64,000 bases of DNA, taken from Giardia intestinalis. Its lineage: Eukaryota. Both the position numbers and the translations under genes were made by a program. The stretch lies in assembly GCA_000002435.2 (NCBI GenBank), contig CM018789.1. The stretch is one strand, 5' to 3'. Of this stretch, positions 20,401 to 63,591 are shown piece by piece (position 1 is the stretch's first letter; each line of letters opens with the position of its first letter). The notes under the pieces were generated by a model that saw nothing but the letters and a program-made list of their open reading frames with translations, had not been told where the DNA came from and made no database searches.

Positions 20401-20722
20401 TTAGGTTACAGCGGGGGCATCTGGGCCGTCGTCTGCTGGCTCCAGGGCAGAAGAGCGGTAGACATGCCGGGCGGTCCCGCTGCTTATTTTTGGATTTTCT
20501 ACTCTTTCACGCTGCATAGAAGGGGTGAGATCTTAGGAAAAACCGGGCTTTGAGGGTCTACTGGCATCGTGAAAGAGCAGTAGGCTGTACAGTGACGCGT
20601 TTACTACCTAAGTGGATGCCACTTACGCCTTCCCCCGACAGATGAACCACCAGCAGAGGAACCCTATGAGGCCCCCGACGACGACGATGGCTGCGACGGA
20701 GATCCCCGCGATGGCGCCAGTG
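17495..20722. repeat. Left arm of a 3.2-kb-arm inverted repeat (partner 25515-28742); symmetry x <-> 46237-x
   Basis: ORF-track entries are mirrored with a constant coordinate sum of 46237 (e.g. 20344-20553+ vs 25684-25893-; 18230-18514+ vs 27723-28007-). The arms are indel-free from about 17640 to 20620, with only a few amino-acid substitutions visible (E/K; PSR/TFR; A/T, P/H, V/M). The arm is about 68% GC with no recognisable gene. The inner end overlaps the last ~35 codons (~100 nt of conserved tail) of the VSP CDS. Confidence 0.9.
20599..20622 (-). promoter_or_regulatory. Conserved VSP 3' end / extended polyadenylation signal, mirror copy for the minus-strand VSP
   Basis: Exact reverse complement of 25615-25638 (the two positions sum to 46237). 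Confidence 0.75.
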
Positions 20723-23544: not shown

Positions 23545-25614
23545 ATGTTATTAACAGCCTTTTATATTGTGCTGGGCTCCTTTGCAGCACCTTGCCAGCA
23601 AGACGGAGACCACATAGTGACCTGTCAGGTCAATAAGTGCGAGACGGTCGGGTCAGCCGAGATTTGTACCGAGTGCAAGGTCGGAGGCGTCCCGGTCGAC
23701 GGCTTCTGCCGACCCTTCGGCTCCATCCAGGCCGCGGCGGCCGGGTGCACCAAAGCAGACGGGGCTGCTCTCGACAAGATGACAGCAACCTGCGAGAAGT
23801 GCGGCGACGGGTACTTCCTCTTCATGGGCGGGTGCTACAAGACAACCGACGGGCCCGGCAGCGAGATATGCACAAAGGCTGAGGGAGGACTGTGCACTGA
23901 GTGTAAGACAGCTAACGGCCTGTTCAAGAACCCGGCTACACCTCAGAAACCTGGTAGCGAGTGCATCTTGTGCCATGATGCCACAAATAGAAACGGGGTC
24001 ATGGGAGTGGATAACTGTCTCAAGTGCACGGCACCTGGTGGCAATACAGGAGCGGCCACGTGTACTGAGTGCATGGCTGGAACGTATAAGAAGAGTGATA
24101 CAGAGTGTGCTGCATGCCACAGCGACTGTGCCACATGCAGTGGAGCCAATCAAAATCAGTGCACATCGTGCGAGACAGGGAAGTACCTGAAAGGGACTGA
24201 GTGTGTAGACAAAGGTACGTGTAACAACAATCACTACCCCGATGACACTAGCATGACCTGCGTTGCCTGTACTGTCCTCGATGCCAACTGTGCAACATGC
24301 TCATTTGATAGTGCAACGGCAAAGGGCAAGTGTCTGACTTGTAATTCAAATAAGATTCCCAGGACAACCCTCGACGGAACCTCGACCTGTGTGGAAAATT
24401 CTTATGCTGGGTGTCAAGGAGCTGATAACGAGCTGTTCATGAAGGAGGACCAATCGGCGTGCTTATTATGCGGAGATACTAAAGACGTGGATAATAACAA
24501 TAAAGGCAAAGAAGGGTGTAAGACATGCACTAAGAGTGCAGATGGCTCCCCTCCAACTTGCACAGCTTGCCTCGATGGATACTTCTTTGAACAGTCATCA
24601 AACACTTGTGAGGCTTGTGGGGCCAACTGTGTCACATGTTCAGCTAAAACAGATGAGACTAAATGTAAAACGTGCAAGGAGGGGTTCTTCCTGGCCGGCA
24701 CCGGCGAAGGAAAGTGCATCTCGTGCGAGAATGGTAATGATAGTGGCTACAGCGGGCTTGCAGGATGCCTCTCTTGCACAGCCCCAGCCGCCCCGGGCCC
24801 GGCCAGCTGCAACCGCTGCAAGATCGGCTACAAGTTACAGGGAACAACGTGTGTGAAGACCTGCGAGGATACAACGGCTTGTGGGGGTACTTCTGGCGCC
24901 TGTGATGCTATAGTAATAGATGATAAGGGCAACACAAAGCATTATTGTTCCTACTGTGGGGATAGTGGTAAGTTCCCTATTGATGGTATATGCACTGATA
25001 GCAAAGGAACAAATGCTGGGTGTACTGATCACATTTGCAGCTATTGTGCTCAAGGGTACTTCCTATACATGGGTGGCTGCTATAGTACAGCAAGTCCACC
25101 TGGCAACTATATGTGCAAGACAGCTGAAGGTGGCAAGTGCACTGCTGTTAATGATGGTAATAGGTACTTCATAGTCCCAGAAGCAAAGGCTACTGATCAG
25201 TCTGTGTTGGCTTGTAGTAACCCCCTAGGCACACTAGTAGGCACTGATAGTGCTGCTAAGGCATATGTGGGGGTACTCAACTGTTCACAGTGTAAGGCCC
25301 CAGCAGCTCTGACTGAGGCTGGTATGACTGCTGCTGTCTGTACCTCCTGTGACAGTGGTAAGAAGCCCAACAGGGATGGCAGTGGGTGTGTGACATGCTC
25401 TGTGGGTGATTGCAAGAGCTGTGTGATGGATGATGTGTGTGGGGAGTGCAGTGATGGGTACAGTCTGGAGGGTGGTAAGTGTGTGTCCTCTGGCAGTAAT
25501 AGGAGCGGGCTCTCCACGGGGGCCATCGCGGGGATCTCCGTCGCTGTCATCGTCGTCGTGGGGGGCCTCATAGGGTTCCTCTGCTGGTGGTTCATCTGTC
25601 GGGGGAAGGCGTAA
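23545..25614 (+). CDS. vsp: Variant-specific surface protein (VSP), 689 aa
   Basis: Signal peptide MLLTAFYIVLGSFAAP, CXXC repeats, GGCY motifs (FLFMGGCYKT, FLYMGGCYST), and C-terminus ...GLIGFLCWWFICRGKA*. The ORF track starts at a GTG at 23503; the first ATG is 23545. Head-to-head with the other VSP; the starts are 1.28 kb apart. Confidence 0.9.
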   Translation: MLLTAFYIVLGSFAAPCQQDGDHIVTCQVNKCETVGSAEICTECKVGGVPVDGFCRPFGSIQAAAAGCTKADGAALDKMTATCEKCGDGYFLFMGGCYKTTDGPGSEICTKAEGGLCTECKTANGLFKNPATPQKPGSECILCHDATNRNGVMGVDNCLKCTAPGGNTGAATCTECMAGTYKKSDTECAACHSDCATCSGANQNQCTSCETGKYLKGTECVDKGTCNNNHYPDDTSMTCVACTVLDANCATCSFDSATAKGKCLTCNSNKIPRTTLDGTSTCVENSYAGCQGADNELFMKEDQSACLLCGDTKDVDNNNKGKEGCKTCTKSADGSPPTCTACLDGYFFEQSSNTCEACGANCVTCSAKTDETKCKTCKEGFFLAGTGEGKCISCENGNDSGYSGLAGCLSCTAPAAPGPASCNRCKIGYKLQGTTCVKTCEDTTACGGTSGACDAIVIDDKGNTKHYCSYCGDSGKFPIDGICTDSKGTNAGCTDHICSYCAQGYFLYMGGCYSTASPPGNYMCKTAEGGKCTAVNDGNRYFIVPEAKATDQSVLACSNPLGTLVGTDSAAKAYVGVLNCSQCKAPAALTEAGMTAAVCTSCDSGKKPNRDGSGCVTCSVGDCKSCVMDDVCGECSDGYSLEGGKCVSSGSNRSGLSTGAIAGISVAVIVVVGGLIGFLCWWFICRGKA

Positions 25615-42073: not shown

Positions 42074-43225
42074 ATGGGCTCGGGAGACTTCTCCATTAAC
42101 GATCTAGACGTACTCAAACAGATCAAAAGCGCAAAGGAGGATAAGTTCCAGGTTGTTCTGCTAATAATCCGATACGTCATAGAGCTGGTGAAGAAGTTAG
42201 AGTTTTCTTCCGCAGAGGACATTGTGCTAAAGATGGACAGCAGAATAGCTCGTCTCCAATCCTTCCTGCCTCTTAACCTTCTCATTACCAACGTCGGCAA
42301 ACGGTGTATCGCCTGTGTAGTGGAGGTACTGCACGAGAGCGGTATTATCCAGTCCACGGTTCCACTGTTTGAGCAGCGCAAGTCTCCTGACGATTTTACT
42401 ATGTCTCCTAGGCTGCAGAGCCGCATGATAGACAGGCTCCATAGCTACGAGGAACACATTTGCAGTATACGCCTAAAGCCATGCGACCTAAATCCACGGG
42501 CATACAACACGGGGGCTTCCATGGGATACTGCTCACCAAGCGAGCTTATGGGATCCCTGACAACGCGAGCAAGCGTTAAACCGACAATGCGTGGTGCCAT
42601 GAATAGCTCAGATGACGAGTACAGAGGTATCCGCAACAAGTTCTCCCAGGGAATAATACACGGTGACATCGTGCTGGTCGTCAGTCCGGGCATCCAACTA
42701 TGTAATTACTTAACTGACCTATATGCAAGCGGGGTGGGCTTTGAGCTGGTAGTGTTGGAGAACGAGCCGCTCCGAGATGGCCTCCACGCAGCCCTCTACT
42801 TTTCAAGCCTTGGAATACCTACTTCTCTGATTGCCGATTCTGCCTTGATGATTTTCCTTCCCAAGATTGCAGTACTCTTTCTTGAGCCAGAGTTTGTCTT
42901 CAACAACGGGGCTGCAGTTGCCTCATCTGGCTCCGTTCTAGCAGCCATGGCAGCTAAAATATATAACATACCCGTTAACTGCCTCTGCGAAACCTTCCAG
43001 TTCTGCACTGCATATCCCTCTTCTCTGTCTACGTTGATATTGTCCGCCAATCCATCTGAGATACTGCCCGATGCAGATAGTTATGACACATTTAAAAAGG
43101 TAACAATAAAAGCCCCCCTTGCGGGCTATATCGAGCCAGATTGCATTGATTACTATATCACATCTGAAGGGATATTCAAGCCCAAGGCAATCTTCCAATT
43201 GCTGCAGGCCATAATGAATATTTGA
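42074..43225 (+). CDS. Translation initiation factor eIF-2B subunit family protein (IF-2B domain; beta/delta-like)
   Basis: GDIVLVVSPGIQLCNYLTDLYASGVGFELVVLENEPLRDGLHAALYFSSLGIPTSLIADSALMIFLPKIAVLFLEPEFVFNNGAAVASSGSVLAAMAAKIYNIPVNCLCETFQF is the eIF2B/MTNA-family core. AATAAAATG initiator at 42074. Confidence 0.65.
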   Translation: MGSGDFSINDLDVLKQIKSAKEDKFQVVLLIIRYVIELVKKLEFSSAEDIVLKMDSRIARLQSFLPLNLLITNVGKRCIACVVEVLHESGIIQSTVPLFEQRKSPDDFTMSPRLQSRMIDRLHSYEEHICSIRLKPCDLNPRAYNTGASMGYCSPSELMGSLTTRASVKPTMRGAMNSSDDEYRGIRNKFSQGIIHGDIVLVVSPGIQLCNYLTDLYASGVGFELVVLENEPLRDGLHAALYFSSLGIPTSLIADSALMIFLPKIAVLFLEPEFVFNNGAAVASSGSVLAAMAAKIYNIPVNCLCETFQFCTAYPSSLSTLILSANPSEILPDADSYDTFKKVTIKAPLAGYIEPDCIDYYITSEGIFKPKAIFQLLQAIMNI

Positions 43226-45593
43226 ATGCGTCAGATCTGCTTTTCATTGCATCTACCGTGCCCTTCAGGTCACGTGGGTCTAGAACGGCGTCCACTGTCT
43301 GTACGAAGTAGATCTGTTTGCTGTGATATGCGTTTACGCTTGTGCACCTGAGTATCTGCTCAATGGCCGATTCAAGGCCTAGGGCAGAGCCTGCAGGTAT
43401 ATAAAAGACTGCTACTGCAAGCGAAAAGATAGGGCAAGCCATCTGGATCCACGGGTCAGTTTTGAAGATGCAGCGCCTTGAACAGAGGAGATCCTTGAGC
43501 TTTTCCAGGGCGCTGCTTAGAAAGCTCTGCTCCTTTTTAGTGTGGTAGAGTCCTGTGCTAATAAACACCTGGGCGTAGAGGAGAGGCTCCATGTAATGAA
43601 GCTTGCTGCTTCCTATAGCATTCGTGAGTAGAGTGTTGGCATGAAAGCGGAGGTAGTGGGACTTCTGGTAACACTTATAATCTAGTACAACTATCTGCAG
43701 ATTGTAAAACGATATTGAGCTGTTCTCAGCTTCTTTGGAAATGGCCTCTTTCAAGGCATCAACTAAAGTGCTTGGGTGCGTCAGCTGGCTGCTCAATGCT
43801 ATTGATCCTTCGCCTGAATTAACAATGTCACAGCGCATTGTTCCATCAACGATACTATAGAAGTCATTTGCGTACAACGTTGCGATTTGATCATACACGG
43901 AAGTTTGAGGATTCAATGTGGCAAGTAGCTCATTGCGCTTTTGTGGCCCAGTCACGTAGCCCCAGACTTTGGGTGGTGGAGATTCACGTAGTATTACAGA
44001 AATAGTAAAGCTAAGTATACCACGGAGTTCATCAAGATACACTTTTAGTTGAGTGGGGTTTTGTGATGTATGTGAAACGCGCTTACTTAGTACTGGAAGC
44101 AGTGGGAGAGTCTGGATAGTGGACTCCTCTTGTTTCAGAAGCTTTTGGGCCAAGAAATTCTGCGCCACCAAGTAGAGAATTGACAGGAAGAGGTTTAACG
44201 TGTACTCTCCTCTTGTTCTTACTTCTAAGACGTTGGCTTGGTGTGTAGGTTGGAGGCTAAGTCCAGAAAAATATATAGATAATTGCAGAGCATCTGGAAC
44301 CAGAGGGGCTGGAACCTGGCTGTGTGTCACGTATGGATAGAAGGTAGACTTCTGCTTAAGGGACTTGATCCAATCAACCGTATCACCTCTGTGCTGCGGT
44401 GAAATCAGAATCATGAATATAGTATCGGCAGGGATAATAGAGAGTCTTTTTAAGGATCCATCAGACTCTTCTATCAGCGGCCCGAGGGCACCTACTCCTA
44501 GGAGCTCGCTCCATTGGCTCTCACTGCCTACTAGTGCTGACGGTGCATAGAAGATATAAGCAGACCAAGGTGCACATAACTTGTATGGACAGCAACATAA
44601 AAAAAGGTGCCGAAGATTTTCTGAAGTAACAGTGATTGGTAGTTTGGCAGACATGTATTTAGGAATGCACGCTATTAGATCTCTTGGAGTAAATTCGGTA
44701 CCATTTAAGAGAGAGCTGACAATGCGCTCAAATGTTGCAGGCGAGTCTAGTCTATCATTAGGTGATCTCTGAACGCTTGCCAGACAATATGCCTTCAAAC
44801 AATTGTAGTAGCACAAAAGAGTCTGATGGCCCATGGAGTCTTTGAGCCAAGGATAGTCTCTGCAAAGGGCGTCCTCAAGAGCCTCTATTTGAAGACGAAG
44901 ATGTAGTGCAACATACTGTATTAAACAGCACTGGTTAGCCCCCTTCTTACGTATTCGAGTGACTTCTGCATAACAGAATTTGTCTATATTACTAAATGCC
45001 AAAATGCATGTGGGTGATGACCAAGTATGAACGCTGTCATGCACTGTCGTTAATCTATCTTCAAGTGCACTTAAGTACATATTATGGTCAGGTTGAAGCC
45101 CAGCGCAGAGATTGACCAATAGAATGACAGTTCTTAGGCGAGAGCAAATGGAAATGCTCTCTGGTAGCTGCTGTGGATGTCCTGGGGTGTCTAGGAAAAA
45201 GACAATATACGTTGGTGATGCATTATTTCGAGACACCTTGCAATAGCTCCGCCAGGCCTCGACAAACACAGTCCGTTTAAGCCCTTGGTTGACCGTCTTG
45301 CTCATAGAAGCGTTGACAGAAGAGGCGATCCTCTGTGAAAGGTAACTAGCTAGTGTTGTCTTTCCACTTTGGTTGGGGCCCAAAATCCCAATTGTTGCCG
45401 TGCGGCCTGCTGCATAGAGTTGTAGGTTAAATTCTGAGTCTGCTCCGATAGTCCATTCCTCTCTAGCGCTGTGTAGCTCGTACCTAGAAACCTGAAGGTC
45501 GGCTGCAGGCAGATCTAGAGCCACATCCTCCTCATTAATTTGAACAAAAGAGTCGCTGGTGCTTTCTAATGTGCTGTAAGATGAGTCAGTCAT
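43176..45593 (-). CDS. Large (805 aa) divergent translation-factor-type GTPase-like protein (IF2/eIF5B-like G domain with degenerate G4)
   Basis: G1 is ILGPNQSGKTT and G3 is FFLDTPGH. The following LLVNLCAGLQPDH aligns with eIF5B LVVDIMHGLEPQT, and AFSNIDKF sits where NKxD (ALNKIDR) is expected. No clear ortholog assignment. The 3' end overlaps the eIF2B gene by 50 bp (convergent). Confidence 0.4.
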   Translation of the reverse strand: MTDSSYSTLESTSDSFVQINEEDVALDLPAADLQVSRYELHSAREEWTIGADSEFNLQLYAAGRTATIGILGPNQSGKTTLASYLSQRIASSVNASMSKTVNQGLKRTVFVEAWRSYCKVSRNNASPTYIVFFLDTPGHPQQLPESISICSRLRTVILLVNLCAGLQPDHNMYLSALEDRLTTVHDSVHTWSSPTCILAFSNIDKFCYAEVTRIRKKGANQCCLIQYVALHLRLQIEALEDALCRDYPWLKDSMGHQTLLCYYNCLKAYCLASVQRSPNDRLDSPATFERIVSSLLNGTEFTPRDLIACIPKYMSAKLPITVTSENLRHLFLCCCPYKLCAPWSAYIFYAPSALVGSESQWSELLGVGALGPLIEESDGSLKRLSIIPADTIFMILISPQHRGDTVDWIKSLKQKSTFYPYVTHSQVPAPLVPDALQLSIYFSGLSLQPTHQANVLEVRTRGEYTLNLFLSILYLVAQNFLAQKLLKQEESTIQTLPLLPVLSKRVSHTSQNPTQLKVYLDELRGILSFTISVILRESPPPKVWGYVTGPQKRNELLATLNPQTSVYDQIATLYANDFYSIVDGTMRCDIVNSGEGSIALSSQLTHPSTLVDALKEAISKEAENSSISFYNLQIVVLDYKCYQKSHYLRFHANTLLTNAIGSSKLHYMEPLLYAQVFISTGLYHTKKEQSFLSSALEKLKDLLCSRRCIFKTDPWIQMACPIFSLAVAVFYIPAGSALGLESAIEQILRCTSVNAYHSKQIYFVQTVDAVLDPRDLKGTVDAMKSRSDAFKYSLWPAAIGRLPWA

Positions 45594-45713
45594 ATTGTCC
45601 GTTATATGTTGCCTCCTTATAATTCTTCAGCTAGTAGGTTTTATTTCTTACAGACTAGTCGGCCTGGCAGACGCAGAGAAGATTAACAAGAGGAAAACCG
45701 GGGACATTTACTC

Positions 45714-48146
45714 TTAGGAGCGCTCGGGTTGAGACATGAATGCCTCAAAGATGACGCTGGCCTTTGTGCAGTCCCAAGGCCTTTTATCTGGTCGTGCCCT
45801 TAAGAGCCTAGGAAGTCTCAGGGATATCCCTTGGCCAGTTTCTGGATTAAAGCACAGGGTATGCTTCATACTCAAGCTGAGATTGGCACACTTCACCTCC
45901 CAGACCTGCGACGTCTCGGGATCGAACCACATATCTGGCTCCTTATCCAGCCGCGCCTCAATAGACGCGGGCTTCTCTTTCATGCCACATTTGACAAAGC
46001 TGTCATGAAATACGGCTAAGTCAGCATCACTAAAACCTGTCCCAAGCTGACACACGGTTTCCCACTGGTCGCACTCCTCGTTGAATGACGCTAATAGATA
46101 TGCTCCAAGAACCCCGGTACGCTTCCCAGTTCCCATCCACGCGGCAACAGGCACCAGATCAAAGCTATCGCCAACGTCTTCCAGGTAATCCTTCTTTAGC
46201 TTTAGCCAAGCATGAGATCTCTCGTCTGGCCGATACCACGAGTCTCTAGACCTGAGTATCTTCACTATGAGGCCTTCTGTTTTGTTCTGGACAGCCTCTT
46301 CCAATAGATCTTTGAGGTTGGTGTCCTGTGTGCAAGTAACTGCCCTTGCAAACTCAAATCTGCGTGGCAAGACTGCAAACGCATAGTAAAGAGCCTCTTT
46401 CCTATCTGCAAGATCAACTGATAAGTAGTCCCTGGAGTTGAGAAAAAGTATGTCGAATGCGTACATCACAATTTCTGTTCGAGTCTTCACCTCCTTCACC
46501 TGCTTTGCATCCTTCTGTGCCTTGAGGATGTCTTTTTCGCGCCGGGACAGATACTGAAATGGAAGAACAAGGCCTGTGTCGGCATTTATGGGGCAGATCT
46601 CTCCGTCTATGACAAAGTTTGCGTTCTCTCTTTCTTCAACTGTCATCCCAGCAAACAGCTTGCTCTCTTGGAACGAATTCATAACAGACTCAGAAACATC
46701 GGGAAACCGCTTGGACATGTTCTCAAGAGACCGTGAAAAGATCTGAATTTTGTTGGTAGAAGCTCGTGCATCGTAGTGCACTTGCGCCCTGAATCCATCG
46801 TATTTATATTCGGCACTGAAGGACTGCTCACAACTGATACGTTGGATGATTTCGCCGTAGCTTGTGGTCGGCCGAGCAAGCATGGATAGCACGGGGACTC
46901 CTGGCTTGATGGTCATTGAGTAGAGTGCTGCAAGCACGCCTTCTATGTTTGTCTGATTCTTGTTCCTCTCTGAGCCTTCGCCACAGTGAGCGATGATTTG
47001 GTTGAGGATAACCTCGAAGCTTGGGCACGAGCTATACGCCTTGGAGATGACTATGTGACAGTGAGTGCGTAGCTCCTTGCTATTAATGGACAGGAGGTCG
47101 CCGTGGAGACTCTCAAACTGGTCACCAATAGCCCCAATAGATACAGAATCGCTAGAGTATTCGTAGACATCACTATCATCGCTACGAGAGACATTGTCTA
47201 TATCGAGATCATCATCTTTTCTACCACTCTTGTTGCTGTGGTTATCGTCACCGGTTTTGCCCTTCTTCCCAGTCAGCTCAACAGCAGTGTCAGCTGCCTT
47301 GATGATAGGAACCCTTCCGTAACCCAGTAATGTGTCGTAAACCTCGCTGATGCGATCTTTCGTTGCAAATCCTTTAATTTTGCATAGAATTATGCAGCAC
47401 AGTAGGTCAGCAAGAGTGGACACAATGGACTTTTTCTGAATTCCAAGCCGGAACTTCCCAGCGATAAGTCGTGAGATGTATCTAGTATCTAGCGTGGTCC
47501 CGTTGTATAGTAAGTTTGAGATAATCGTCGACTTGTCATCCATCGAAGAGGCTCCGGACGTGTCTGCTATTTGTAGAAGCTTTTGGTAAACGTCGGAAAC
47601 GTTAAGGGGCCTCCGAGGAGCAAATGTAGCGCTCTGTGACTTTTTGACCTTTTCCGCCACGGCTCCTATGTCGCCATGCTTCTCTATGAGCTTCTGTATA
47701 GTTGTGGGATCAGATCCAAAGGTCTTTGAAATGACCTTACGCAAACTGATTTCGGCAAAGTTCAACACAGATGGAAGGTCGGACCATGGTTCTCTGAGTT
47801 GATTTGTAGAAAGTAAAACAGCTGGTACAATATCTTTGGTAGATTCTAAGTAGATTTGCAAGAGCATCTGAACCATTTCGCGGCTCTTCTCAAGACGCTT
47901 GGTGGTATCCTCTATCCGCTTCCAGGCCGCAGACAGAGATGCAAAAGGAAAAGAAATATCCTTTTCTACCTCCTGGCCGTTGCTTGCAACTATATTACTA
48001 GTACTCATCTGTGAGGAAGTGCCAAGATCTGCCTTAGTTGCTGTGGGAGTTGTAGAGGATGAAGAAGCAACGTTCTTCGCTTTCCGGGGTGGCTCGCCAT
48101 TGCTACGGCTATGTGATTGCAGAAATGCATCAATAGAAAGCTGCAT
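45714..48146 (-). CDS. LIG1: ATP-dependent DNA ligase I
   Basis: Motif I is AEYKYDGFRAQVHYD (ligase I-type EYKYDGQRAQIH), motif IV is TEGLIVK, and an OB-fold region (DLVPVAAWMGTGKRTGVLGAYLLA) is present. ATG at 48144-48146. Confidence 0.85.
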   Translation of the reverse strand: MQLSIDAFLQSHSRSNGEPPRKAKNVASSSSTTPTATKADLGTSSQMSTSNIVASNGQEVEKDISFPFASLSAAWKRIEDTTKRLEKSREMVQMLLQIYLESTKDIVPAVLLSTNQLREPWSDLPSVLNFAEISLRKVISKTFGSDPTTIQKLIEKHGDIGAVAEKVKKSQSATFAPRRPLNVSDVYQKLLQIADTSGASSMDDKSTIISNLLYNGTTLDTRYISRLIAGKFRLGIQKKSIVSTLADLLCCIILCKIKGFATKDRISEVYDTLLGYGRVPIIKAADTAVELTGKKGKTGDDNHSNKSGRKDDDLDIDNVSRSDDSDVYEYSSDSVSIGAIGDQFESLHGDLLSINSKELRTHCHIVISKAYSSCPSFEVILNQIIAHCGEGSERNKNQTNIEGVLAALYSMTIKPGVPVLSMLARPTTSYGEIIQRISCEQSFSAEYKYDGFRAQVHYDARASTNKIQIFSRSLENMSKRFPDVSESVMNSFQESKLFAGMTVEERENANFVIDGEICPINADTGLVLPFQYLSRREKDILKAQKDAKQVKEVKTRTEIVMYAFDILFLNSRDYLSVDLADRKEALYYAFAVLPRRFEFARAVTCTQDTNLKDLLEEAVQNKTEGLIVKILRSRDSWYRPDERSHAWLKLKKDYLEDVGDSFDLVPVAAWMGTGKRTGVLGAYLLASFNEECDQWETVCQLGTGFSDADLAVFHDSFVKCGMKEKPASIEARLDKEPDMWFDPETSQVWEVKCANLSLSMKHTLCFNPETGQGISLRLPRLLRARPDKRPWDCTKASVIFEAFMSQPERS

Positions 48147-48151
48147 TGGGG

Positions 48152-51100
48152 CTACGCACGTATAGACAGAAGCTTGATTACGCCGATAACTTTTTTAGTT
48201 GCTTCATCAAGGTCGCTTATATCGACGTCGCTCGGAGTCACCAGTACCACCTGCACAGAGGTTTGAAGGATGGCGTCCAGCATTAGTTTGAAGGCCCTCT
48301 TTCGGCGGGTCGCATCCATAAATACGTCCCACTCATCAATCTGGGCGTATCGCGTTTTTATTACAAGCCAGCATGAGACCATAAAGCATAGGGATATGAA
48401 CGTGCTTTCACCTCCGCTGAGGCTTGTCGCTCCACGCGTAGTCGATCGGATATCAATAGATCCTTTGGATGAAGCGATTGTCGTAATCGGTTGTTGATTG
48501 GCATCGTCGGAGGTCTCATCTACATTGACGTGTGATCTGCTTGGTGGTTCTACACTCCACGAGGCATGTAGTTGAGCACCACATATGTCGTAGTATCTAT
48601 CTGTGACTTGCTTGTCAATGAGCTCGAGCAGTTTAGGGGAGACAACGGGGAGCGCAGGGAACTGGAAGTACAATCGCTGGTTAATACCAGTGATCTCAGA
48701 CGTCTGCATAAAATGAAAGCTTATGTCATGCTCTGCGTATGAGCGAATAGATGTCAATTTGATTAATTGCCGCACAGCAATCTCCCCAAGTGAGGATATC
48801 TCCTGCAATATAGCAGTGTACTCTTTGGTCTGCGCTCGGATTTCATCCTCTATCCTCAATAGATGCTGCTTTTCTGCCTCTATGTCGCCATTGAATTCCT
48901 GTGCCAATTCATGCTTCTTCTCCTCTATTCGCTGGATCTCTTCAGACACAGCAGATAGTAAGTTATTTATGTTAATGAGAAGTTGCTCATTGTCTTCATA
49001 AGAGCTATCAGGAATGCTCTTTATATCTTTGGCATCTTGTCCTTCGGCAAAGATGGAGTAATCTGCAAGGAAATCTACCAAGAGAAACGCTAAGCGGGTG
49101 ACAGGATTGTAATAAGAGGAATCGATGTTCTCGTTTGCACACAATATCGCATATAGCTCCCGGAACGGTGAATGGTTTTGGTCCACCACATGCTCTGCAG
49201 AGCTCAAACCGTTGTCAATTGGAGGATTACATGGCTGTGCTCCTCTCAGTGACAGTGACTCAGAAAAAACAGTAGCCTGCCTTTCTCTGTACTCAGGTAC
49301 CAAATTGGACAAATTCTCAAATACTTCTAGAAATGTTTGCAAGTCGTTCAAAGTAGCGCTCTGAGCTGAGGTCAAGAAAGCCCTCAGTGTCTTGACTTTC
49401 GCTTTGCATGTAGTAATAGCATTTTCGGTTTGACTTATCTGCTTGTCCAAGTCTTCGGCCTGTATACTCTCCCTGTGAGCAATCTTCTCTGAGAGCCTGT
49501 CTTCTAGCACAACTACGTCAGCCTCGCACTTATCATATGTCTTTTGTTGTTGTTCAACTATGTCCTGCTTATTTTTAAGAGAGGCATTTGATCTTTCTAG
49601 ATCACTTGTCATCTCGGCTAGCTTGCTTTCCAGGGTTGCGAGTTTCAACCCAGACGATTCTACGATTGCACGAGAGCGCTCCAATTGTCTTCTCGCACTT
49701 TGCATCTCTCGTTGCTGTGCGTTATAGCATTCAACACTTTGTGCATACTGCTGCTTGAGGTGAATTAATCTACTATTATTGGCCTCCATTGTCTGCAGGA
49801 CTCGGGCCGCTTCTGCGGAAATGGATTCCAACTCTGCTTGAAGCTCGCTCTTCTTCAGAGTTTCCTGGGCCTCTATTACGCTCAGTTTGGCCACTGAATA
49901 ATTGGACTCAAACTCGGCCTTTGCCATCTCATAAGCGCGCTGCTGGCGTTGAATCTCTGATTGTAGGTTTGATTGGTTGGTGGTAGCTGAATAAAGACTC
50001 TGGGCCTTGATTGACCCTTGATTACTATATGCTGGTTTCATAATAACGCTATTTTTGGCGCCGATAAACATGATGCATTCTCTGTCCTTAGGAAGGCATT
50101 GAAAAGACACATGCAGCTTCTTTCCTACCTCCAAGACAGTGCGTGCGACCTCGAGGGTCTCGCAGATGACTAATCTGGATAGTTGGACCTTTAGCTGGAG
50201 GACTTCTAGAGCGAAGGGAGAAGAATTACCAAGGCACTGCATCACAGACAGGACCTTATCTCTATAGACTGGACCCAGCTCATGAACAAGCATGTTGTAC
50301 TCATCCATGGTAGGAATGGTCGACCTCAAGAGATTCATAAGCTGTATGCTTCGGCCTAAAATATTTCTGAGCCTATGCTCGTCATTCTTATCCCTATATG
50401 CTATTGTATTTAAAAGGCTTGGGCCTATAACACGTCTGATTATTGGTGCAAAAGCTGATGACGACTCCTTTACCCATATATATGCCGCAAGCGGGGCTAC
50501 CACACCACCCGAAAAGGACTCTGCTTTGACTTTAGTATAAATTTGATAGTTTGCTGGGTACAACGAGCTGATGCATTTCTCTGGCGCGGTAGTGCCAGAG
50601 GCCTCCAACTCTAGCTGTCGTTGCAAATAGTTCAATTGGTTTTTTGCGTTCTCGCACTTTTGGCGAGCTTCTGCCTCCCTGTCTTGTCTCCACTCTCTCT
50701 GCTTGAATACGCTCAATAGTGCAGACTCCAGTTTGCTCTTTTGCGTCTGCAGTTGCATCAGCTTCAGTTGCAAAGAGTGCTCCTCTGCTTCTAACCTCTT
50801 GTGTTCTTCGCTCTTCTCCGGAGGGGCAAGACACTCCTGCGCATCTGCTACCTTGCTGAGAAACTCAGTGTGCTGGGCAATTTCCTTCTTTAGCAATGCC
50901 GCGTCTTCATGTCCAGTCTTCATCATGCTCTCCAGGGTATTAATGTGTCTTGCAGTTGCTTCTAACTCACTCTTCTGTGCAGTTAATTCATCAACGAGAT
51001 CCATCAACTGCTTCTTGCCTTCGTCTAAATGCACAGTTAGCTCATCTATTTCTATATTGCAACGCTTTAGATATGGCTCTAGATTTGCTTTTGCATCCTG

Positions 51101-52069
51101 CTGGCGTTCATATTCGGCAAAGAGCTGCGCAAGCTCCCTCTTCTCTGCTTGTTCAACATCGAGTCGGTGATTTTGGACATGCACCCGGTGTTTCTGAATG
51201 GATAAAGCGACCTTCTTCAGGCCCACCTTATTGAGATTTACGTCTGCCTCATGGTATTCCTTCATTGCCTTGATTCTTCTTCCAACGCGCTTTCTATCCT
51301 GCATAAGATGCTTGAGGCCTCCTGCTATGCGCCTGCTACCTGCGATGGAGTTTTCCAAAGAGAGCTGAGAGTTTGCTAGATTCGCTTCTATCTCATCAAA
51401 AGACATGGCCGTGCTGAAGATCTTGTATCGATCAACTGGCTTCATGCGCACAAGGACCTTCATTCTCGATTGAGAGACCATCGTGATCTCATTGTCTGGA
51501 AAGTGGCCCATGTCAACCAGGATAGAGTGGGCCCGCTCGAAGGATATTCGCTCAAATTGGGGAGTGGATTTGGTGCTGGGGGGAAAGCTTGTACACAAAA
51601 AAAAATTGGTGACTTCGTTTGTGACCGTCCGCTTCAATCCAATAATCGGCCCAGAAAATTCAGAGCCCCCTTCATAATAGAAGTAGGCAATCACAGAACA
51701 TTGTGTAGTTTGTACATTTGTACTTGTGTCTTTTAGGCAAACTACTGTTTTTAAATTCGAAAATCTCTCGCAGTTATCACGGATATTTTTTGCCTTTCCA
51801 CCTAGGACAAAGTGGATGGCCTGGAGGATGGACGACTTCCCCGCACCGTTTGGGCCATGAATAAGAGATACCGGGCATTCAAAGTCCACCACCTTGTCTC
51901 TATGTGTAAGGAAGTTCGTTATGTGCAGCCGAAGAATGTATCCTGTTCTAGTATACATCACTGGGTGCCTCGGAACATTGAATATGTCAGCGACTGTTTT
52001 ATTTGGATGACGCGCCAGGGCTGCAATTTCGTCTGGAAGAGTAGCATTAAGATTGTCCTGGTGGTTCAT
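48152..52069 (-). CDS. SMC6: SMC5/6-complex SMC protein, SMC6-like
   Basis: N-terminal Walker A is LIHGPNGAGKSSILQAIHFVLGG. About 900 aa of coiled coil with a central hinge follow. The C-terminal signature plus Walker B, LSGGESTFISLCFMVSCWLV...IDEWDVFMDATRRK, matches SMC6 (LSGGERSFSTVCFILSLW...LDEFDVYMD) better than SMC5 or RAD50. The stop codon lies only 5 nt from the LIG1 ATG. Confidence 0.7.
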   Translation of the reverse strand: MNHQDNLNATLPDEIAALARHPNKTVADIFNVPRHPVMYTRTGYILRLHITNFLTHRDKVVDFECPVSLIHGPNGAGKSSILQAIHFVLGGKAKNIRDNCERFSNLKTVVCLKDTSTNVQTTQCSVIAYFYYEGGSEFSGPIIGLKRTVTNEVTNFFLCTSFPPSTKSTPQFERISFERAHSILVDMGHFPDNEITMVSQSRMKVLVRMKPVDRYKIFSTAMSFDEIEANLANSQLSLENSIAGSRRIAGGLKHLMQDRKRVGRRIKAMKEYHEADVNLNKVGLKKVALSIQKHRVHVQNHRLDVEQAEKRELAQLFAEYERQQDAKANLEPYLKRCNIEIDELTVHLDEGKKQLMDLVDELTAQKSELEATARHINTLESMMKTGHEDAALLKKEIAQHTEFLSKVADAQECLAPPEKSEEHKRLEAEEHSLQLKLMQLQTQKSKLESALLSVFKQREWRQDREAEARQKCENAKNQLNYLQRQLELEASGTTAPEKCISSLYPANYQIYTKVKAESFSGGVVAPLAAYIWVKESSSAFAPIIRRVIGPSLLNTIAYRDKNDEHRLRNILGRSIQLMNLLRSTIPTMDEYNMLVHELGPVYRDKVLSVMQCLGNSSPFALEVLQLKVQLSRLVICETLEVARTVLEVGKKLHVSFQCLPKDRECIMFIGAKNSVIMKPAYSNQGSIKAQSLYSATTNQSNLQSEIQRQQRAYEMAKAEFESNYSVAKLSVIEAQETLKKSELQAELESISAEAARVLQTMEANNSRLIHLKQQYAQSVECYNAQQREMQSARRQLERSRAIVESSGLKLATLESKLAEMTSDLERSNASLKNKQDIVEQQQKTYDKCEADVVVLEDRLSEKIAHRESIQAEDLDKQISQTENAITTCKAKVKTLRAFLTSAQSATLNDLQTFLEVFENLSNLVPEYRERQATVFSESLSLRGAQPCNPPIDNGLSSAEHVVDQNHSPFRELYAILCANENIDSSYYNPVTRLAFLLVDFLADYSIFAEGQDAKDIKSIPDSSYEDNEQLLININNLLSAVSEEIQRIEEKKHELAQEFNGDIEAEKQHLLRIEDEIRAQTKEYTAILQEISSLGEIAVRQLIKLTSIRSYAEHDISFHFMQTSEITGINQRLYFQFPALPVVSPKLLELIDKQVTDRYYDICGAQLHASWSVEPPSRSHVNVDETSDDANQQPITTIASSKGSIDIRSTTRGATSLSGGESTFISLCFMVSCWLVIKTRYAQIDEWDVFMDATRRKRAFKLMLDAILQTSVQVVLVTPSDVDISDLDEATKKVIGVIKLLSIRA

Positions 52070-52107
52070 TTTGTTTAATGCAGAAGATTGGAAATCTCAC
52101 AGCATCA

Positions 52108-54468
52108 CTAAACAACCCTGTTAAACGATTGGAGGATCTCTCTAGCAGAATATCCTGTGAGAGCATAGCAGCACCATTCATTATCTCCTAGTAGAGTGGG
52201 GGAGAGCGCCTGAAGAGCTTGGCAAAGTTCTGGTGGCTGTTGACCAATTCGGTCCATAAGAATGCTCACCAGTAATTCAACATAGCTCTTAGCAAGTGTG
52301 TAGCAGGACTCTGTGTCGACTTCCTTCAAAAAGCTCTCAAGGCTGTTCTTGTCTGGAAACAAATCCCATCTTCTGATTATGTCTAATATTTCCTTATAGT
52401 TTTGATCGCTTTGTGCCAAGAGCACCAATATATGGGGAGCAAGAACCAATGCATCATTGCTTATTCCAAACATGTGGTCACTCAGAAGTTCCGCAAGCTT
52501 CTTTGAATGCACCTCCTGACCAGAGACTCTATAAAAGATATCGCGGCTTAGATACTGCGAACTGAGCAAATTGTAATAGCAGGATAGCATCTTAGCGACC
52601 AGTAATTTCCCAATATCAACACATATAAGAGCTAGCTCCTTGCTTTGGAGGAATCCCAAGAGCATGTTGGTCCCTTCGCTACTGAACATGGTGGTGGCGC
52701 CACACAGTATGGGCCTTGTATCCCTATTGAGAGCTGGAAGTGTGCCTGGATTGTACGCAGCAGGAAGACTATCTATAAGTCTTTGAATGCCTATACTTGC
52801 CAAAGCACGACGAGACCTCTTGCTATACTCACCAAATTCTTTGTCAAAGAAAGCCATGTAATTCAGCGGTTCAGCATTCTGTGCCTGGATATCCTGAACC
52901 TGTTGAATAATTACCACATCGTCTGTTATAGCAGTATCAGATATGTCTGTAGTCTGATTTTCTTTACTTTCCCTATCACAGTCTACTTGTTTCCCCTCTC
53001 CTTCTTGATCATGGGAATCAATGTGATGAGAGAGCTGAAGTGGAGGACTGCATGGAGCCGATGTTTGGGTGTTTGGTGGCTCTCTCTCACGTGGGGTTCT
53101 CTGCACGTTTTCAAATCGAAGAATTGAGACCATTGAAGGATCATGCCTTTGCTTGTACAGGGGGCTGCTTGTGCCTTTGAACGACGAGTCCAGAGTATTA
53201 ATCAGCCGATTGCTTTTCTGAACTGAGTTATCAGTAGGTGCCAATCGGGGCCGAAGCTTTGTTTTAGGTTGAGATAATAACTGTTCCGCTGTTTTCACAT
53301 GATGCTCCTTCATGTGCTGTGTTAGCATATCAATAACTGCTGTGTATATCACTTCTTCCTCGAGGAGTAGTACCCTCTCTTTGGAAGGGTGAACATTGGG
53401 GTCACAGCCACCAGGATCAACTGCAATCCATAGTATCCCTGCCTGAATGGTGCTAAAAGCAGATAGATATATATCAACTACACTCTGAACGGCATTCTTT
53501 AGACGTGGGTACTGTACCCTTCGACCATTAATAAATATCAGAAGATTAATAAGGCGTTTGTCTTGTCGTGAATGATCTACTGGATCAACGAAGTAGAAAG
53601 ATAGCTCTCTGCATGTATCACAAGGATAGTGCTTGACGAGAGACTGAACCTGCAGCGGCTCGGTCCCACAACCTTTAGTTTGACTTAATAATGCAGTCAA
53701 TACTTGGAGGAACCGCTGGTACCTTGTCGTCGTAGAGCTGAAGTGGAGGGTTGCAGTTCCAAACTCAATAGTGTATGAAATAAGCGATAGCATGCCGGAT
53801 ATGTGTTGTGTGTCGTTGAGCCAAGATTGAATCTCTCTTTGAATGGCCTGGGGATTATCTATAAACGAAATAGAATATTCTCTCGTAGGGTTAGCAGCAG
53901 AAATAGATATTAAGAGCTCTTGCAAATCTAAACTAGTTTTCGAACTGCGGATTTGATTACGCCTAATTGGTTCTGCATAGAAGAGATCGGTAACACAAAT
54001 TATGGTGAAAGAATCCGCCTTTAAGGTGCTGATGAAGAAGTCAGTGTGCTCAGATGTAAGTGTCTTTGGGTCGAAGTGAAGCTTTCCGTCTATGTACACG
54101 GCCACGTATGCAGGTTGATTCTTTGTTTTGGAAACAACTATCATACGGCTTACATAACTAATAGATGAAAGAGCCTCTCCTCTGAAACCAAAGGACTGGA
54201 TACTGTAAATGTCACTAAAGGTTTCAATCTTGCTCGTTGCAAACCGGTGGCAGAGGAGGGAGTAGTCTGTCCGTTCTATGCCGTGGCCTGTGTCGCAAAC
54301 CATTAGCAGATCATAGCAATTGCTGCTAACGAACAACCTGATTGTTGGTGCATCTGCATCAGTCGCGTTTTCTACCAGCTCCTTGGCAACGTTAAATGGT
54401 CGCTGGATCACCTCTCCTGCAGCCATTTTGGCTACTGTTTCGGGGTCCAAAATGCGGATCGGGGGCAT
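52108..54468 (-). CDS. MLH1: DNA mismatch repair protein MutL homolog, MLH1-type
   Basis: N-terminal GHKL ATPase: [35 protein letters not shown]...DTGHGI...CHRFATSKI...[14 protein letters not shown] aligns with MLH1 ([35 protein letters not shown]...CERFTTSKL...GFRGEALASISHVA). Confidence 0.8.
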   Translation of the reverse strand: [786 protein letters not shown]

Positions 54469-54534
54469 TTTCGAGGATCTTGAGGGTCAAGAAGGCCTAA
54501 AAAGGCTCAAAAGTAGCAATAATTAAAAAAGATC
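54469..54534. promoter_or_regulatory. 66-bp bidirectional promoter region between MLH1 (minus) and the 793-aa gene (plus)
   Basis: tttcgaggatcttgagggtcaagaaggcctaaaaaggctcaaaagtagcaataattaaaaaagatc. AT-rich initiator-like tracts abut both ATGs (CTCGAAAATG on the minus strand; ATAATTAAAAAAGATCATG on the plus strand). Confidence 0.5.
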
Positions 54535-60808: not shown

Positions 60809-62731
60809 ATGTTTGGTTATCCTTTAAAAAGTATTATGGTAGATTCAATTGTGCCTACTCCAAGCGTACTTCTACCAAGATACTGCCTCAAGAAAGTGCT
60901 TGGGGCAGGGTCATATGGTAAAGTTTACTTGGCGATGGACCTAGAAAATGATACGGAGGTTGCAATTAAACTAATTAACTATAGCGAGCTTCCACAGAGC
61001 CTAAAGGTTATACAGGATGAGGAGATAACATTGCTCAAAACCATACGGCACCCACACATTGTCAGGATGATTGACTCCTATCATGACAGGCAGCAAAACC
61101 TGATCTGCACAGTGCTTCCTCTGTTTCCCCGCGGAGACCTTGCTAGATTTATCAGACACAATAGAGAAACACCGATTCCTGAGCCACAAATATGGTGGCT
61201 GCTGGCTCAGATGGGCAGCGCCCTGAGATTTTTGCACAGTGGAGGCAACGGAGCTTGCAGAGGGATCATTCACAGAGACGTTAAGCCAGCTAACATCCTC
61301 ATCGACAACAATCTGTCGGTATATCTAACAGATTTTGGGATCTTTCGCTACATAGACGGTAACACTAAAGCTCTGACGTTCGCGGGTACCAGATGCTATA
61401 TGGCCCCAGAGCAACTGTACAGACAAGCATATGACTGCAAGGTAGACATCTGGGCGCTAGGAGTAACGCTCTATGAAATAATGTGTAGGAAGGCTCTGTT
61501 CAAGCTCTCGGATGACGAATTCATCAAGAAAAGCATCAAGGCGATCAGGCCGCTTCTTGACTCTATCTCCATCTACAGTACAGAACTGAAGGAGGTACTA
61601 AAGAAGCTATTGACGATTAATCCAACGCAGAGGATTTCTACTGAAGAGTTATGTGAGCACCCCATTCTAGCAGGACTTGTGAAGCTAGCGGAGAGTGGAC
61701 AAGTGCCACCACAGGACTTATATGCAGCCCTTCCTGTTATAGAAACAGCTACTCAGCACCACCCTAACTCGAGCTCACTTACCTTACTTAAGATACCTAC
61801 CATTGATGTTGACGATCCCGAGATTGATGCTCTTGACAGGACGCCTATTATGCGGGCGGTCATCTTGGGTGGTCCTGTGACCATTGATCCCAGGTACACT
61901 AGATTTTCAACTTCACACGGGGTCACGGCATTAATGTTCGCAGCCGCCTATGGGAACACGCGTGCTGTGGAGCTGCTTGTGCAACACGAAGCAAAAATGG
62001 TGGACTCTGACGGGTTGTCTGCCATATTCTATGCTGTATATGCGAATGCCTTGGATGCCGTAAAGTTGCTCTTGGATGCAGAGCATGACATGCGTGACAA
62101 CCGTGGATGTACTCCACTGGTAACAGCGGCACGGCAAGGTCGCAAAGAAATCGTTGCCTTTCTTGCACCGCGCATGGCTGGACTGCAGGGGAGAAGTGGC
62201 TGGACTGCACTGATGGCCGCAGCAACTAGCGACTCGGTTGATTGTATAAACGAGCTAGTCACATATGAGAAAGGGCTTATTGATAGCCACGGAGAAACTG
62301 CACTTATGAAGGCGGCAAGGTGCGACAGCGTAAATGCTATTAGTCTCTTACTCCCATATGAAGGCGACATTATCCGAAAAGATGGCAAGACAGCCCTGAT
62401 GTCTGCAGCAGAACTGAGCAAAAACAATGCTTTACACCTTCTTCTTTGGCAAGCAGGGCTAGCCAAGCATGATGGAATGACTGCCTTAATGTTTGCCGCA
62501 AGAAAGGGTAACATAGAGGGAGTCGAGGTTTTACTACCTCTCGAAAAGACTCTGCAAAACTCTCGAGGCAACACGGCTCTGATTGAGGCGATCCTCACCA
62601 AGCAAGTGGTCGCTGCATACTGTCTTGTGCCCCATGAAGGGCATATTGCAGATCATTCCGGGACTACCCCGCTTATGCATGCGCAGATGCAGGGCCTTTT
62701 GGATCTCTGCCAGCTCCTTCAACAGAATTAA
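60809..62731 (+). CDS. NEK-family serine/threonine kinase (catalytically competent motifs) with C-terminal ankyrin repeats
   Basis: LGAGSYGKV, VAIK, IIHRDVKPANILID, LTDFGIF and CYMAPE are all present. Ankyrin repeats run from about 61850 (TPIMRAVILGG...TALMFAAAYGNTRAVELLVQHEA...). The ORF track starts at a TTG at 60794. The first ATG is 60809, and an alternative ATG at 60839 has a typical initiator CTTTAAAAAGTATTATG. Confidence 0.8.
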   Translation: MFGYPLKSIMVDSIVPTPSVLLPRYCLKKVLGAGSYGKVYLAMDLENDTEVAIKLINYSELPQSLKVIQDEEITLLKTIRHPHIVRMIDSYHDRQQNLICTVLPLFPRGDLARFIRHNRETPIPEPQIWWLLAQMGSALRFLHSGGNGACRGIIHRDVKPANILIDNNLSVYLTDFGIFRYIDGNTKALTFAGTRCYMAPEQLYRQAYDCKVDIWALGVTLYEIMCRKALFKLSDDEFIKKSIKAIRPLLDSISIYSTELKEVLKKLLTINPTQRISTEELCEHPILAGLVKLAESGQVPPQDLYAALPVIETATQHHPNSSSLTLLKIPTIDVDDPEIDALDRTPIMRAVILGGPVTIDPRYTRFSTSHGVTALMFAAAYGNTRAVELLVQHEAKMVDSDGLSAIFYAVYANALDAVKLLLDAEHDMRDNRGCTPLVTAARQGRKEIVAFLAPRMAGLQGRSGWTALMAAATSDSVDCINELVTYEKGLIDSHGETALMKAARCDSVNAISLLLPYEGDIIRKDGKTALMSAAELSKNNALHLLLWQAGLAKHDGMTALMFAARKGNIEGVEVLLPLEKTLQNSRGNTALIEAILTKQVVAAYCLVPHEGHIADHSGTTPLMHAQMQGLLDLCQLLQQN

Positions 62732-62733
62732 AA

Positions 62734-63591
62734 ATGCGCCTTTGTCTAAAGAGTGGTTCCTGGTACCCTTTACCAAAGGAGGCAAAGGCTCAGGTTGCAG
62801 CTTTTCTCAGGAAAGCTGGAGAGGCAGTGCATCCAGATGCAAACGTTAGGTTCATTATCGCCCCACATGCCGGTCTGGTGTACAGTGGCTTGACTGCGGC
62901 GCACTCTTATTCATCCATCGACCCTACACGTTATACCTCAGTTGTTATGTTAGGTGTTTGCCACGCTTTTCATCAACGAGGCCTGTCTACGAGCCCATTT
63001 GCGTCCTGGGCCAATCCGTTGATGGAAAAGGGGTCGCCATCCCTCTCTATGGAGACAATTCCGGGTCTTCCTAGTTGCCAAAAAGATGATTGTGAGGAAG
63101 AACATAGTCTAGAGTTGCAAATACCTTTCCTCGCACACGTGTTTGCTAACCAAATTGAGGCTGGTACCGTCAAGTTTTCCGCGGTGTACTGCAGCTATGG
63201 TGCTACAAGGACAGAGATTGACTCCCTGATGGACTATGTCACCGAACACAACTCGCTTATCGTCGTGTCCAGTGACTTTTGTCACTATGGTCCACGGTTC
63301 CAATTTACACCGATGATACAAGGTAAAACAGCGAATGAAACAGTCACAATGCTGGATAATAAGTGCATAAATGGAGTTATGCTGGGCGCAAACTCGTTTG
63401 AAGAGGCTTTGAAAGAAACCCAAAACACCGTTTGCGGACAATACACCATATTGACGTGTCTGCGTGTTTTAGAGGGACTCAAATTGGACGTTAAGAAGGA
63501 GTTATTGTTCTACACCAAATCTGATGAGCCAAGGACGGCCCGTGACCACTCTGTTTCTTATGTCTCCATGCGAGGTATACAGGCATGCTGA
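62734..63591 (+). CDS. MEMO1: MEMO1-family protein (Memo/AmmeMemoRadiSam system protein B fold)
   Basis: GSWYPLP...[78 protein letters not shown]. These align with human MEMO1 (GSWYTAS...[78 protein letters not shown]). The ATG lies 2 nt after the NEK stop codon. Confidence 0.8.
   Translation: [285 protein letters not shown]

Follow-up and report, generated by a model that had tools for sequence, protein, structure and literature searches.

The closest described system for the locus analysed here, three genome-maintenance genes coding for an MLH1-like protein, SMC6 and DNA ligase I (LIG1) within a stretch of 64,000 nucleotides (nt) of contig CM018789.1 (the window), is the genome-wide compaction of Giardia itself, with its overlapping transcription units. 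As the comparison set, we used the Morrison 2007 genome and the studies of Franzen 2013 (PMC3610916), Tolba 2013 (PMC3792122) and Xu 2020 (PMC7641422). Transcription in Giardia starts at an AT-rich initiator of 11 nt, usually no more than 40 nt from the ATG, and 24% of the transcription start site (TSS) regions lie inside open reading frames (ORFs) (PMC3792122). Translation is described as relying on very short 5' untranslated regions (UTRs) without scanning, and the mapping of poly(A) sites gave a median 3' UTR of 80 nt, with 31% of the poly(A) clusters falling within ORFs in the sense direction, most of them having no recognisable signal, with 47% of the mapped sites lacking a motif, and with transcripts overlapping in 81% of the tail-to-tail gene pairs (PMC3610916). 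The median intergenic size is 81 bp in G. intestinalis and 37 bp in G. muris, and 9.5% of the G. muris genes overlap a neighbour (PMC7641422).

The locus shares with this system its short spacers, the AT-rich 11-nt initiators predicted by the ATG, and the probable placement of TSSs and poly(A) sites in neighbouring ORFs; the AGTRAAY poly(A) signal typical of Giardia is seen close to the stop codon of LIG1. Nothing sets the locus apart qualitatively; its spacer of 5 nt falls at the lower end of the distribution, and the neighbours happen to share a broad function. Microsporidia and nucleomorphs likewise have intergenic regions too short for full signals and transcripts reaching into adjacent genes, but these are other lineages in which multigene transcripts were shown experimentally. 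Kinetoplastid polycistrons and the SL2 operons of C. elegans also consist of same-strand genes with very short spacers. However, their cistrons are resolved by trans-splicing, whereas the trio genes each have an initiator-like element of their own and their order is not conserved beyond one species complex. No mechanism of the trans-splicing type for resolving mRNAs is known in Giardia. In yeast and metazoa, co-expressed or functionally related neighbours are weakly clustered, and adjacent pairs show co-expression; as in those organisms, adjacent related genes could share chromatin, bidirectional or read-through effects here.

The three genes lie head-to-tail on the minus strand, with gaps of 38 nt between MLH1 and SMC6 and 5 nt between SMC6 and LIG1:

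52108..54468, minus strand: MLH1-like gene, 786 amino acids (aa), first of the trio in transcription order
48152..52069, minus strand: SMC6 gene, 1305 aa, second of the trio
45714..48146, minus strand: DNA ligase I gene, 810 aa, third of the trio; corresponds to GL50803_7649 in strain WB (gene ID, coordinates and length listed in Table S1 of PMC3610916)

On the older WB scaffold CH991767, the locus is placed at 1770966–1779720. A recheck of the ORFs returned exactly the coordinates, the shared strand and the two spacer lengths given by an earlier interpretation made without database searches (the sequence-only reading). We explain the locus best as ordinary Giardia packing, i.e., three separately initiated, monocistronic units with overlapping ends, and assign this reading a probability of about 0.78. 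A Giardia promoter consists of little beyond the AT-rich 11-nt initiator near the ATG. Transcription of SMC6 would then start at the invariant TAAACAAAATG that closes the 38-nt spacer, and that of LIG1 most likely at an A-rich element about 50 nt upstream, in the last SMC6 codons. The MLH1 and SMC6 mRNAs would probably extend into the gene that follows and stop tens to hundreds of bases inside it. The LIG1 mRNA ends at its canonical AGTAAAT, and its 3' end is mapped in published data. The presence of genome-maintenance genes side by side would result from small-scale rearrangement and inheritance, and not from an operon.

Spacing, start signals and transcript ends

We called 16 long ORFs from 30 kb onward, which is the gene-dense half of the window, and obtained 15 spacers of −50, 2, 5, 24, 35, 38, 66, 74, 74, 75, 120, 120, 216, 331 and 369 nt (median 74). 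A NEK kinase gene (60809–62731) and a Memo-like gene (62734–63591) lie on the same strand only 2 nt apart, and an initiator-like AATTAAAAATG overlaps the stop codon of the kinase gene (62729–62736). Because these two genes are functionally unlinked, they provide a control for close spacing from within the window. The 38- and 5-nt gaps of the trio are no tighter than expected for a Giardia genome. The phenomena implied by such a layout, namely promoters and 3' ends in neighbouring coding sequences (CDS) and overlapping transcripts, are already known genome-wide. The assessment of the arrangement as unexpected in a eukaryote overlooks that such packing, in which ORFs harbour TSSs and poly(A) sites, is documented for the Giardia genome as a whole (PMC3610916, PMC3792122, PMC7641422).

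Start and end signals at the two junctions were assigned to the following elements:

52070..52107, minus strand: MLH1-SMC6 spacer, 38 nt, with the proposed SMC6 initiator at its SMC6 end
48191..48201, minus strand: candidate LIG1 initiator CAACTAAAAAA, within the SMC6 CDS (codons T-K-K)
within the last 60–100 nt of SMC6, minus strand: ACTAAAAAAG, part of the candidate embedded promoter
48147..48151, minus strand: SMC6-LIG1 spacer CCCCA, 5 nt, from the junction alignment
48076..48081, minus strand: candidate SMC6 poly(A) hexamer AGCGAA, at LIG1 +65 (codons 22–24)
45706..45712, minus strand: LIG1 poly(A) signal AGTAAAT, 2 nt after the LIG1 stop codon

Initiators were searched with a rough position weight matrix made from published initiator variants. 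The 11-mer TAAACAAAATG (52067–52077), consisting of the last 8 nt of the MLH1-SMC6 spacer and the ATG, is located at −3 of SMC6 with a score of 6.4 bits. It is invariant in five lineages of the G. intestinalis complex, and the remaining spacer diverges in sequence and length (38, 38, 37, 46 and 46 nt). We propose this 11-mer as the SMC6 initiator. A TAAAY motif is present at −8 of the SMC6 ATG in all five lineages (TAAAC in the window) and may serve as a UAAA-type poly(A) signal, which would end the MLH1 mRNA about at the SMC6 start; the region of TAAACAAAATG possibly plays a dual role as SMC6 initiator and MLH1 poly(A) signal. The sequence-only reading had argued that each downstream promoter and each upstream poly(A) signal must lie inside the CDS of a neighbour. 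This is correct for the 5-nt SMC6-LIG1 junction but overstated for MLH1-SMC6, because the invariant TAAACAAAATG is found in that spacer and Giardia 3' UTRs can be as short as 8–16 nt, so that the spacer could hold both signals.

The SMC6-LIG1 spacer measures 5, 5, 5, 6 and 6 nt in the five lineages, with neither its sequence nor the relative frame of the two genes conserved, and the six bases before the LIG1 ATG vary and lack the A-richness typical of Giardia starts. Among the initiator-like sites no more than 100 nt from the LIG1 ATG, CAACTAAAAAA scores highest, with only 5.3 bits; it is centred 50 nt upstream with no ATG in between, and the string AC[CT]AAAAAA at this candidate initiator is invariant in the five lineages. 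At the 3' end of SMC6, 7 of the last 15 informative codons are identical in all five lineages versus 2.8 expected (P ~0.01), and the same number of the first 15 codons is identical at its 5' end versus 3.5 expected (P ~0.04). No such excess of synonymous conservation was detected in the five lineages at either end of MLH1, LIG1 or the 805-aa gene that follows LIG1. The conservation at the SMC6 ends agrees with an embedded signal, as supporting evidence and not as proof.

A further initiator-like site was observed inside SMC6. AATTTAAAAAC (51747–51757, minus strand), within codons 105–108, is the only strong site of this type (11.4 bits) on the gene strand of the 9-kb region. It coincides with the strongest hotspot of synonymous conservation in SMC6 (9 of 15 codons identical in the five lineages versus 2.5 expected), which includes a rare TTA leucine codon, and the first downstream ATG is out of frame. 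The site could be an internal or bidirectional start of a sterile transcript, or the region where the MLH1 mRNA ends about 350 nt past its stop codon.

The length of the short spacer depends on the start codon of LIG1. The first nine residues, MQLSIDAFL, are invariant in the five lineages despite synonymous codon changes, and the 5–6 nt spacer just upstream varies freely. Because the constraint on the protein begins at the first LIG1 ATG, a start at 48146 is supported, and we take the 5-nt gap as real. If the gap were instead an annotation artefact, LIG1 would start at the next in-frame methionine, codon 47, and the spacer would be about 143 nt long. The region upstream of the first ATG, which is not A-rich, and the ligase N-terminal domain, which begins only at residue 67, would suit such a start; we nevertheless hold it to be highly improbable in view of the conserved N-terminus with its synonymous changes and variable upstream spacer. 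The G. muris protein also begins similarly (MQCSIL), and MQLSIDAFL resembles the N-terminal PCNA-interacting protein (PIP) box of human LIG1 (MQRSIMSFF). The N-terminus fits the pattern Qxx[ILM]xxF with leucine as the final residue, not an aromatic one, and we regard a PIP role only as a candidate.

The position of the AGTAAAT behind LIG1 is consistent with the 3' UTR lengths of 16, 14 and 14 nt published for this gene in the isolates WB, AS175 and P15 (PMC3610916). For MLH1 and SMC6, we found neither AGTRAA nor GTRAAY within 400 nt past the stop codons in the window, and none for about 700 nt into the next gene. Because no canonical AGTRAAY follows their stop codons, these two mRNAs probably end in the next gene. 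A candidate for the SMC6 poly(A) signal is the hexamer at LIG1 +65, which in the four other lineages has the form of the Giardia poly(A) hexamer (AGTGAA or AGTAAA), in the window is AGCGAA (Val to Ala), and would result in a 3' UTR of about 90 nt ending in LIG1 codons 25–30. We regard it as a weak candidate, as these six bases also lie in codons for K-V-K and one of them is mismatched in the window. If it is the SMC6 poly(A) signal, the assemblage A copy is weakened.

Missing poly(A) signals after MLH1 and SMC6 would also be expected of a co-regulated unit coupled by read-through, responding, e.g., to S phase or DNA damage, in which transcription begun at MLH1, SMC6 or both runs on into the downstream genes while the proteins are still made from their own shorter mRNAs. 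We consider such a unit unlikely. Franzen et al. indeed offer read-through from an upstream gene as one source of the sense poly(A) sites inside ORFs (PMC3610916), but the missing motif is not specific to the trio, as many other genes of the window also lack a canonical poly(A) signal and the same applies to the 47% of mapped sites mentioned above. In addition, we identified no shared regulatory motif, and expression of LIG1 seems to exceed that of the genes upstream of it. In four isolates, LIG1 reached 60, 139, 80 and 46 fragments per kilobase per million reads (FPKM; PMC3610916, Table S1), and a search by name and coordinates retrieved neither SMC6 nor MLH1 from the higher-expression part (above ~39 FPKM) of the same table. 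The higher-expression part of the Ansell 2015 supplement likewise contains LIG1 and not SMC6 or MLH1. These expression-sorted tables suggest indirectly that LIG1 mRNA is more abundant than SMC6 or MLH1 mRNA, which fits a promoter of its own for LIG1 and disfavours a purely bicistronic supply. A paper on cell-cycle elutriation makes no mention of the trio genes, and our literature search returned nothing relevant on polycistronic, bicistronic or long-read Giardia transcripts.

The 5-nt junction additionally raises the question of a true bicistronic SMC6-LIG1 mRNA, from which LIG1 would be translated by termination-reinitiation across the 5–6 nt, as in bacterial-style coupling. The constant gap in five of five lineages and the sequence right before the LIG1 ATG, which is not A-rich, would be in line with this mechanism, but no eukaryotic precedent is known for reinitiation after an ORF of 1305 codons. 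The invariant A-rich element 50 nt upstream of LIG1, without an ATG in between, and the apparently higher abundance of LIG1 relative to SMC6 speak against it, as does the gap of 103 nt in G. muris. Together with a translation system described as needing very short 5' UTRs without scanning (PMC3610916), this makes a bicistronic mRNA highly improbable in our estimate. A fusion of SMC6 and LIG1 by stop-codon read-through was rejected, as the frame of one gene relative to the other is not the same where the spacer has 6 nt as where it has 5 nt.

In a more general form, the SMC6-LIG1 junction may be regarded as an expression-coupling device, either by obligatory read-through or by a bicistronic mRNA, that ties the ligase to the expression of SMC5/6 and mismatch repair. 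This is conceivable because the 5–6 nt gap is held down to 62% SMC6 identity and canonical poly(A) signals of MLH1 and SMC6 are missing, and we judge it to be quite improbable. An operon with a single upstream promoter and without internal starts is not apparent either, since initiator-like elements are predicted at −3 of SMC6 and −50 of LIG1.

Gene order in related genomes

The sequence-only reading had suggested comparing the gene order with Spironucleus and other Giardia lineages. The comparison gave the following arrangements:

Five G. intestinalis-complex lineages: MLH1-SMC6-LIG1, spacers of 37–46 and 5–6 nt, SMC6 identity down to 62%
Sixth, partial G. intestinalis-complex contig: SMC6-LIG1 junction only, 6 nt
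G. muris: SMC6-LIG1 only, 103 nt
Lineage X (sample SRR31929897): LIG1 and MLH1 each apart from the other trio genes
Spironucleus salmonicida: LIG1 flanked by genes for a prefoldin and for an ERCC4-family nuclease, 42 nt between LIG1 and ERCC4

The trio is therefore conserved within the G. intestinalis complex only, and its order is not kept across related genomes as would be expected of an operon. In G. muris, no MLH1 gene was found within 10 kb of SMC6-LIG1, and the 793-aa, TBCC and 993-aa neighbours have orthologues there in a rearranged order. A 1782-aa gene upstream of G. muris SMC6 was considered as MLH1 and rejected as coding for an unrelated protein. Lineage X is a third Giardia-like lineage with 59–64% G+C, and its LIG1 is 44–46% identical to that of either Giardia species. 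LIG1 and MLH1 are on separate contigs in this lineage, LIG1 beside a 189-aa gene (next to a SNF2 helicase gene) and a CFA20-domain gene, and MLH1 beside unrelated genes. A 1259-aa gene downstream of the latter was rejected as SMC6, as it codes for a coiled-coil protein without a P-loop. In Spironucleus salmonicida, searched with genetic code 6, neither SMC6 nor MLH1 was found near LIG1 (L004 10001–12124), which is followed on the same strand by the gene for the ERCC4-family nuclease (12167–14038).

The adjacency of SMC6 and LIG1 predates the split of G. intestinalis and G. muris, and that of MLH1 is limited to the G. intestinalis complex. Because frequent small rearrangements and local synteny, the latter for 3043 orthologues, are common in these genomes (Xu et al., PMC7641422), the retention of one pair is unremarkable. 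For the read-through-coupled unit introduced above, the preserved order and tight spacing down to 62% SMC6 identity and the proximity of another repair gene to LIG1 in Spironucleus are favourable points, but the absence of the MLH1 adjacency in G. muris and lineage X is not. Confined as it is to one lineage, the grouping by function is best explained by a historical accident followed by inheritance. Among the explanations put forward by the sequence-only reading, coincidence is thus favoured, as the full trio is restricted to one species complex.

Several points weigh against ordinary packing as the full explanation. Separate initiation and the positions of the SMC6 and MLH1 3' ends are deduced from motifs and alignments. 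The P values for synonymous conservation become marginal after correction for eight gene ends, and the LIG1 candidate, at 5.3 bits, implies a 5' UTR of about 50 nt versus the usual length of less than 20 nt. Moreover, three DNA-maintenance genes in a row are nominally improbable. Assuming about 5000 genes with 2.4–4% involved in DNA maintenance, we roughly estimate ~0.07–0.3 such runs per genome, a post hoc figure, since the category is elastic and the trio was picked after the fact. Finally, the LIG1-ERCC4 pair of Spironucleus is a second, independent adjacency of LIG1 and a repair gene in a diplomonad, so that a weak but real clustering tendency is conceivable.

Gene identities and chromosomal setting

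The identities of LIG1, SMC6 and MLH1 assumed by the sequence-only reading are upheld by domain, structure-database and profile matches, by motifs and by the names of the orthologues in P15 (assemblage E), which are annotated as 'DNA ligase', 'SMC6 protein' and 'Mlh1-like protein'. Mlh1 and Smc6/Rad18 are also recorded for Giardia in a published inventory (PMC2488364). The LIG1 ORF contains the Pfam domains DNA_ligase_A_N, _M and _C (N-terminal, adenylation and OB-fold domains), all above the cut-off, and the active-site motif KxDGxR in the form KYDGFR at residue 448. It matches human LIG1 (4e-86) far better than LIG3 (2e-30) or LIG4 (2e-21).

The SMC6 ORF contains the Pfam domain SMC_N and the head motifs Walker A (GPNGAGKS), signature (LSGGE) and Walker B (DEWDVFMD), the last of which aligns with DEFDVFMD of yeast Smc6. 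A profile built from the ORF and its orthologues matched the solved structures of yeast SMC6 over both heads (2e-20) and of human SMC6 (4e-11), compared to 3e-10 for Rad50, 7e-9 for SMC1 and 5e-4 for SMC5. The length of 1305 aa and the weak alignment of the middle region are compatible with a long antiparallel coiled coil and a central hinge, and the G. muris orthologue was matched at 3e-60.

The MLH1-like ORF contains the Pfam domains HATPase_c_3 and DNA_mis_repair, representing a GHKL ATPase and a MutL transducer domain. Its best structural match is the N-terminal domain of human MLH1 (137 bits, 5.8e-39), and other members of the MutL family were matched at 117 bits (E. coli MutL) and at 70 bits, 2e-18 (PMS2). 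The top matches outside Giardia are MLH1 proteins carrying Mlh1_C; this domain (PF16413) was not detected by Pfam in the ORF itself, and the endonuclease motif of PMS2/MLH3-type proteins, DQHA(X)2E(X)4E, had no match in it. The C-terminal tail ...LQSFNRVV is conserved in the five lineages but only resembles the terminus of MLH1, ...LYKVFERC with its FERC motif. The C-terminal part of the assignment rests on this resemblance between the conserved FNRV tail and FERC.

The locus is close to assemblage A of G. intestinalis, which confirms the Giardia origin assumed by the sequence-only reading, with identical or 99% identical proteins in many sequencing runs, and the P15 orthologues of the trio proteins are 84–89% identical. 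The trio is flanked by the following elements:

43176..45593, minus strand: 805-aa gene on the same strand as the trio, 120 nt 3' of LIG1, with a weak translational-GTPase match
54469..54534, no strand assigned: divergent spacer between MLH1 and a 793-aa gene, 66 nt

Searches against Pfam and PDB detected no link of the 805-aa gene to DNA metabolism (only the weak translational-GTPase match) and no match of the 793-aa gene, which is divergent from MLH1. An enlargement of the cluster by these two flanking genes was therefore dropped. The same weight matrix found a strong initiator-like TAATTAAAAAA for the 793-aa gene in the 66-nt spacer, and a weak AT-rich site for MLH1, 56 nt upstream of its ATG. 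On its other side, the 805-aa GTPase-like gene (minus strand) converges with a gene of the eIF-2B family (plus strand), and their CDS overlap by 50 nt (43176–43225). The corresponding genes of P15 are 65 nt apart, and the overlap in the window is either recent or the result of one over-called end. The strongest initiator-like site of the dense region, CATTTAAAAAG (43089–43099, plus strand; 13.3 bits), lies in sense within the CDS of the same eIF-2B-family gene, about 130 nt before its stop codon.

Positions 1–811 of the window consist of the telomere repeat (CCCTA)n. The pentamer, read as CCTAC, occurs there some 160 times; it is CCCTA in rotated form, and CCCTA is the complement of the Giardia telomere repeat TAGGG. 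Because it opens with these 811 nt of telomere repeat, the window starts at a chromosome end and represents the telomere-proximal 64 kb, with the trio in the first gene-dense core, ~46–54 kb from the end. The GC-rich, gene-sparse subtelomeric 30 kb contain two variant-specific surface protein (VSP) genes at 20623–22266 (minus strand) and 23545–25614 (plus strand). An Rfam scan of the whole window revealed no family, including rRNA.

Meaning for gene expression in Giardia

If the locus represents ordinary packing, it would only illustrate clearly how promoters and 3' ends are accommodated within coding sequence in Giardia, with definite predictions for the SMC6-LIG1 junction, namely a TSS of LIG1 near 48196 and a 3' end of the SMC6 mRNA near 48055–48066. 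If the two genes were coupled, this would resemble an operon in a eukaryote whose cistrons are not resolved by trans-splicing. Gene expression by obligate co-transcription or by coupled translation would be unusual for a eukaryote. Through such a coupling, a parasite in which very few transcription factors are recognised might coordinate its genome-maintenance genes.

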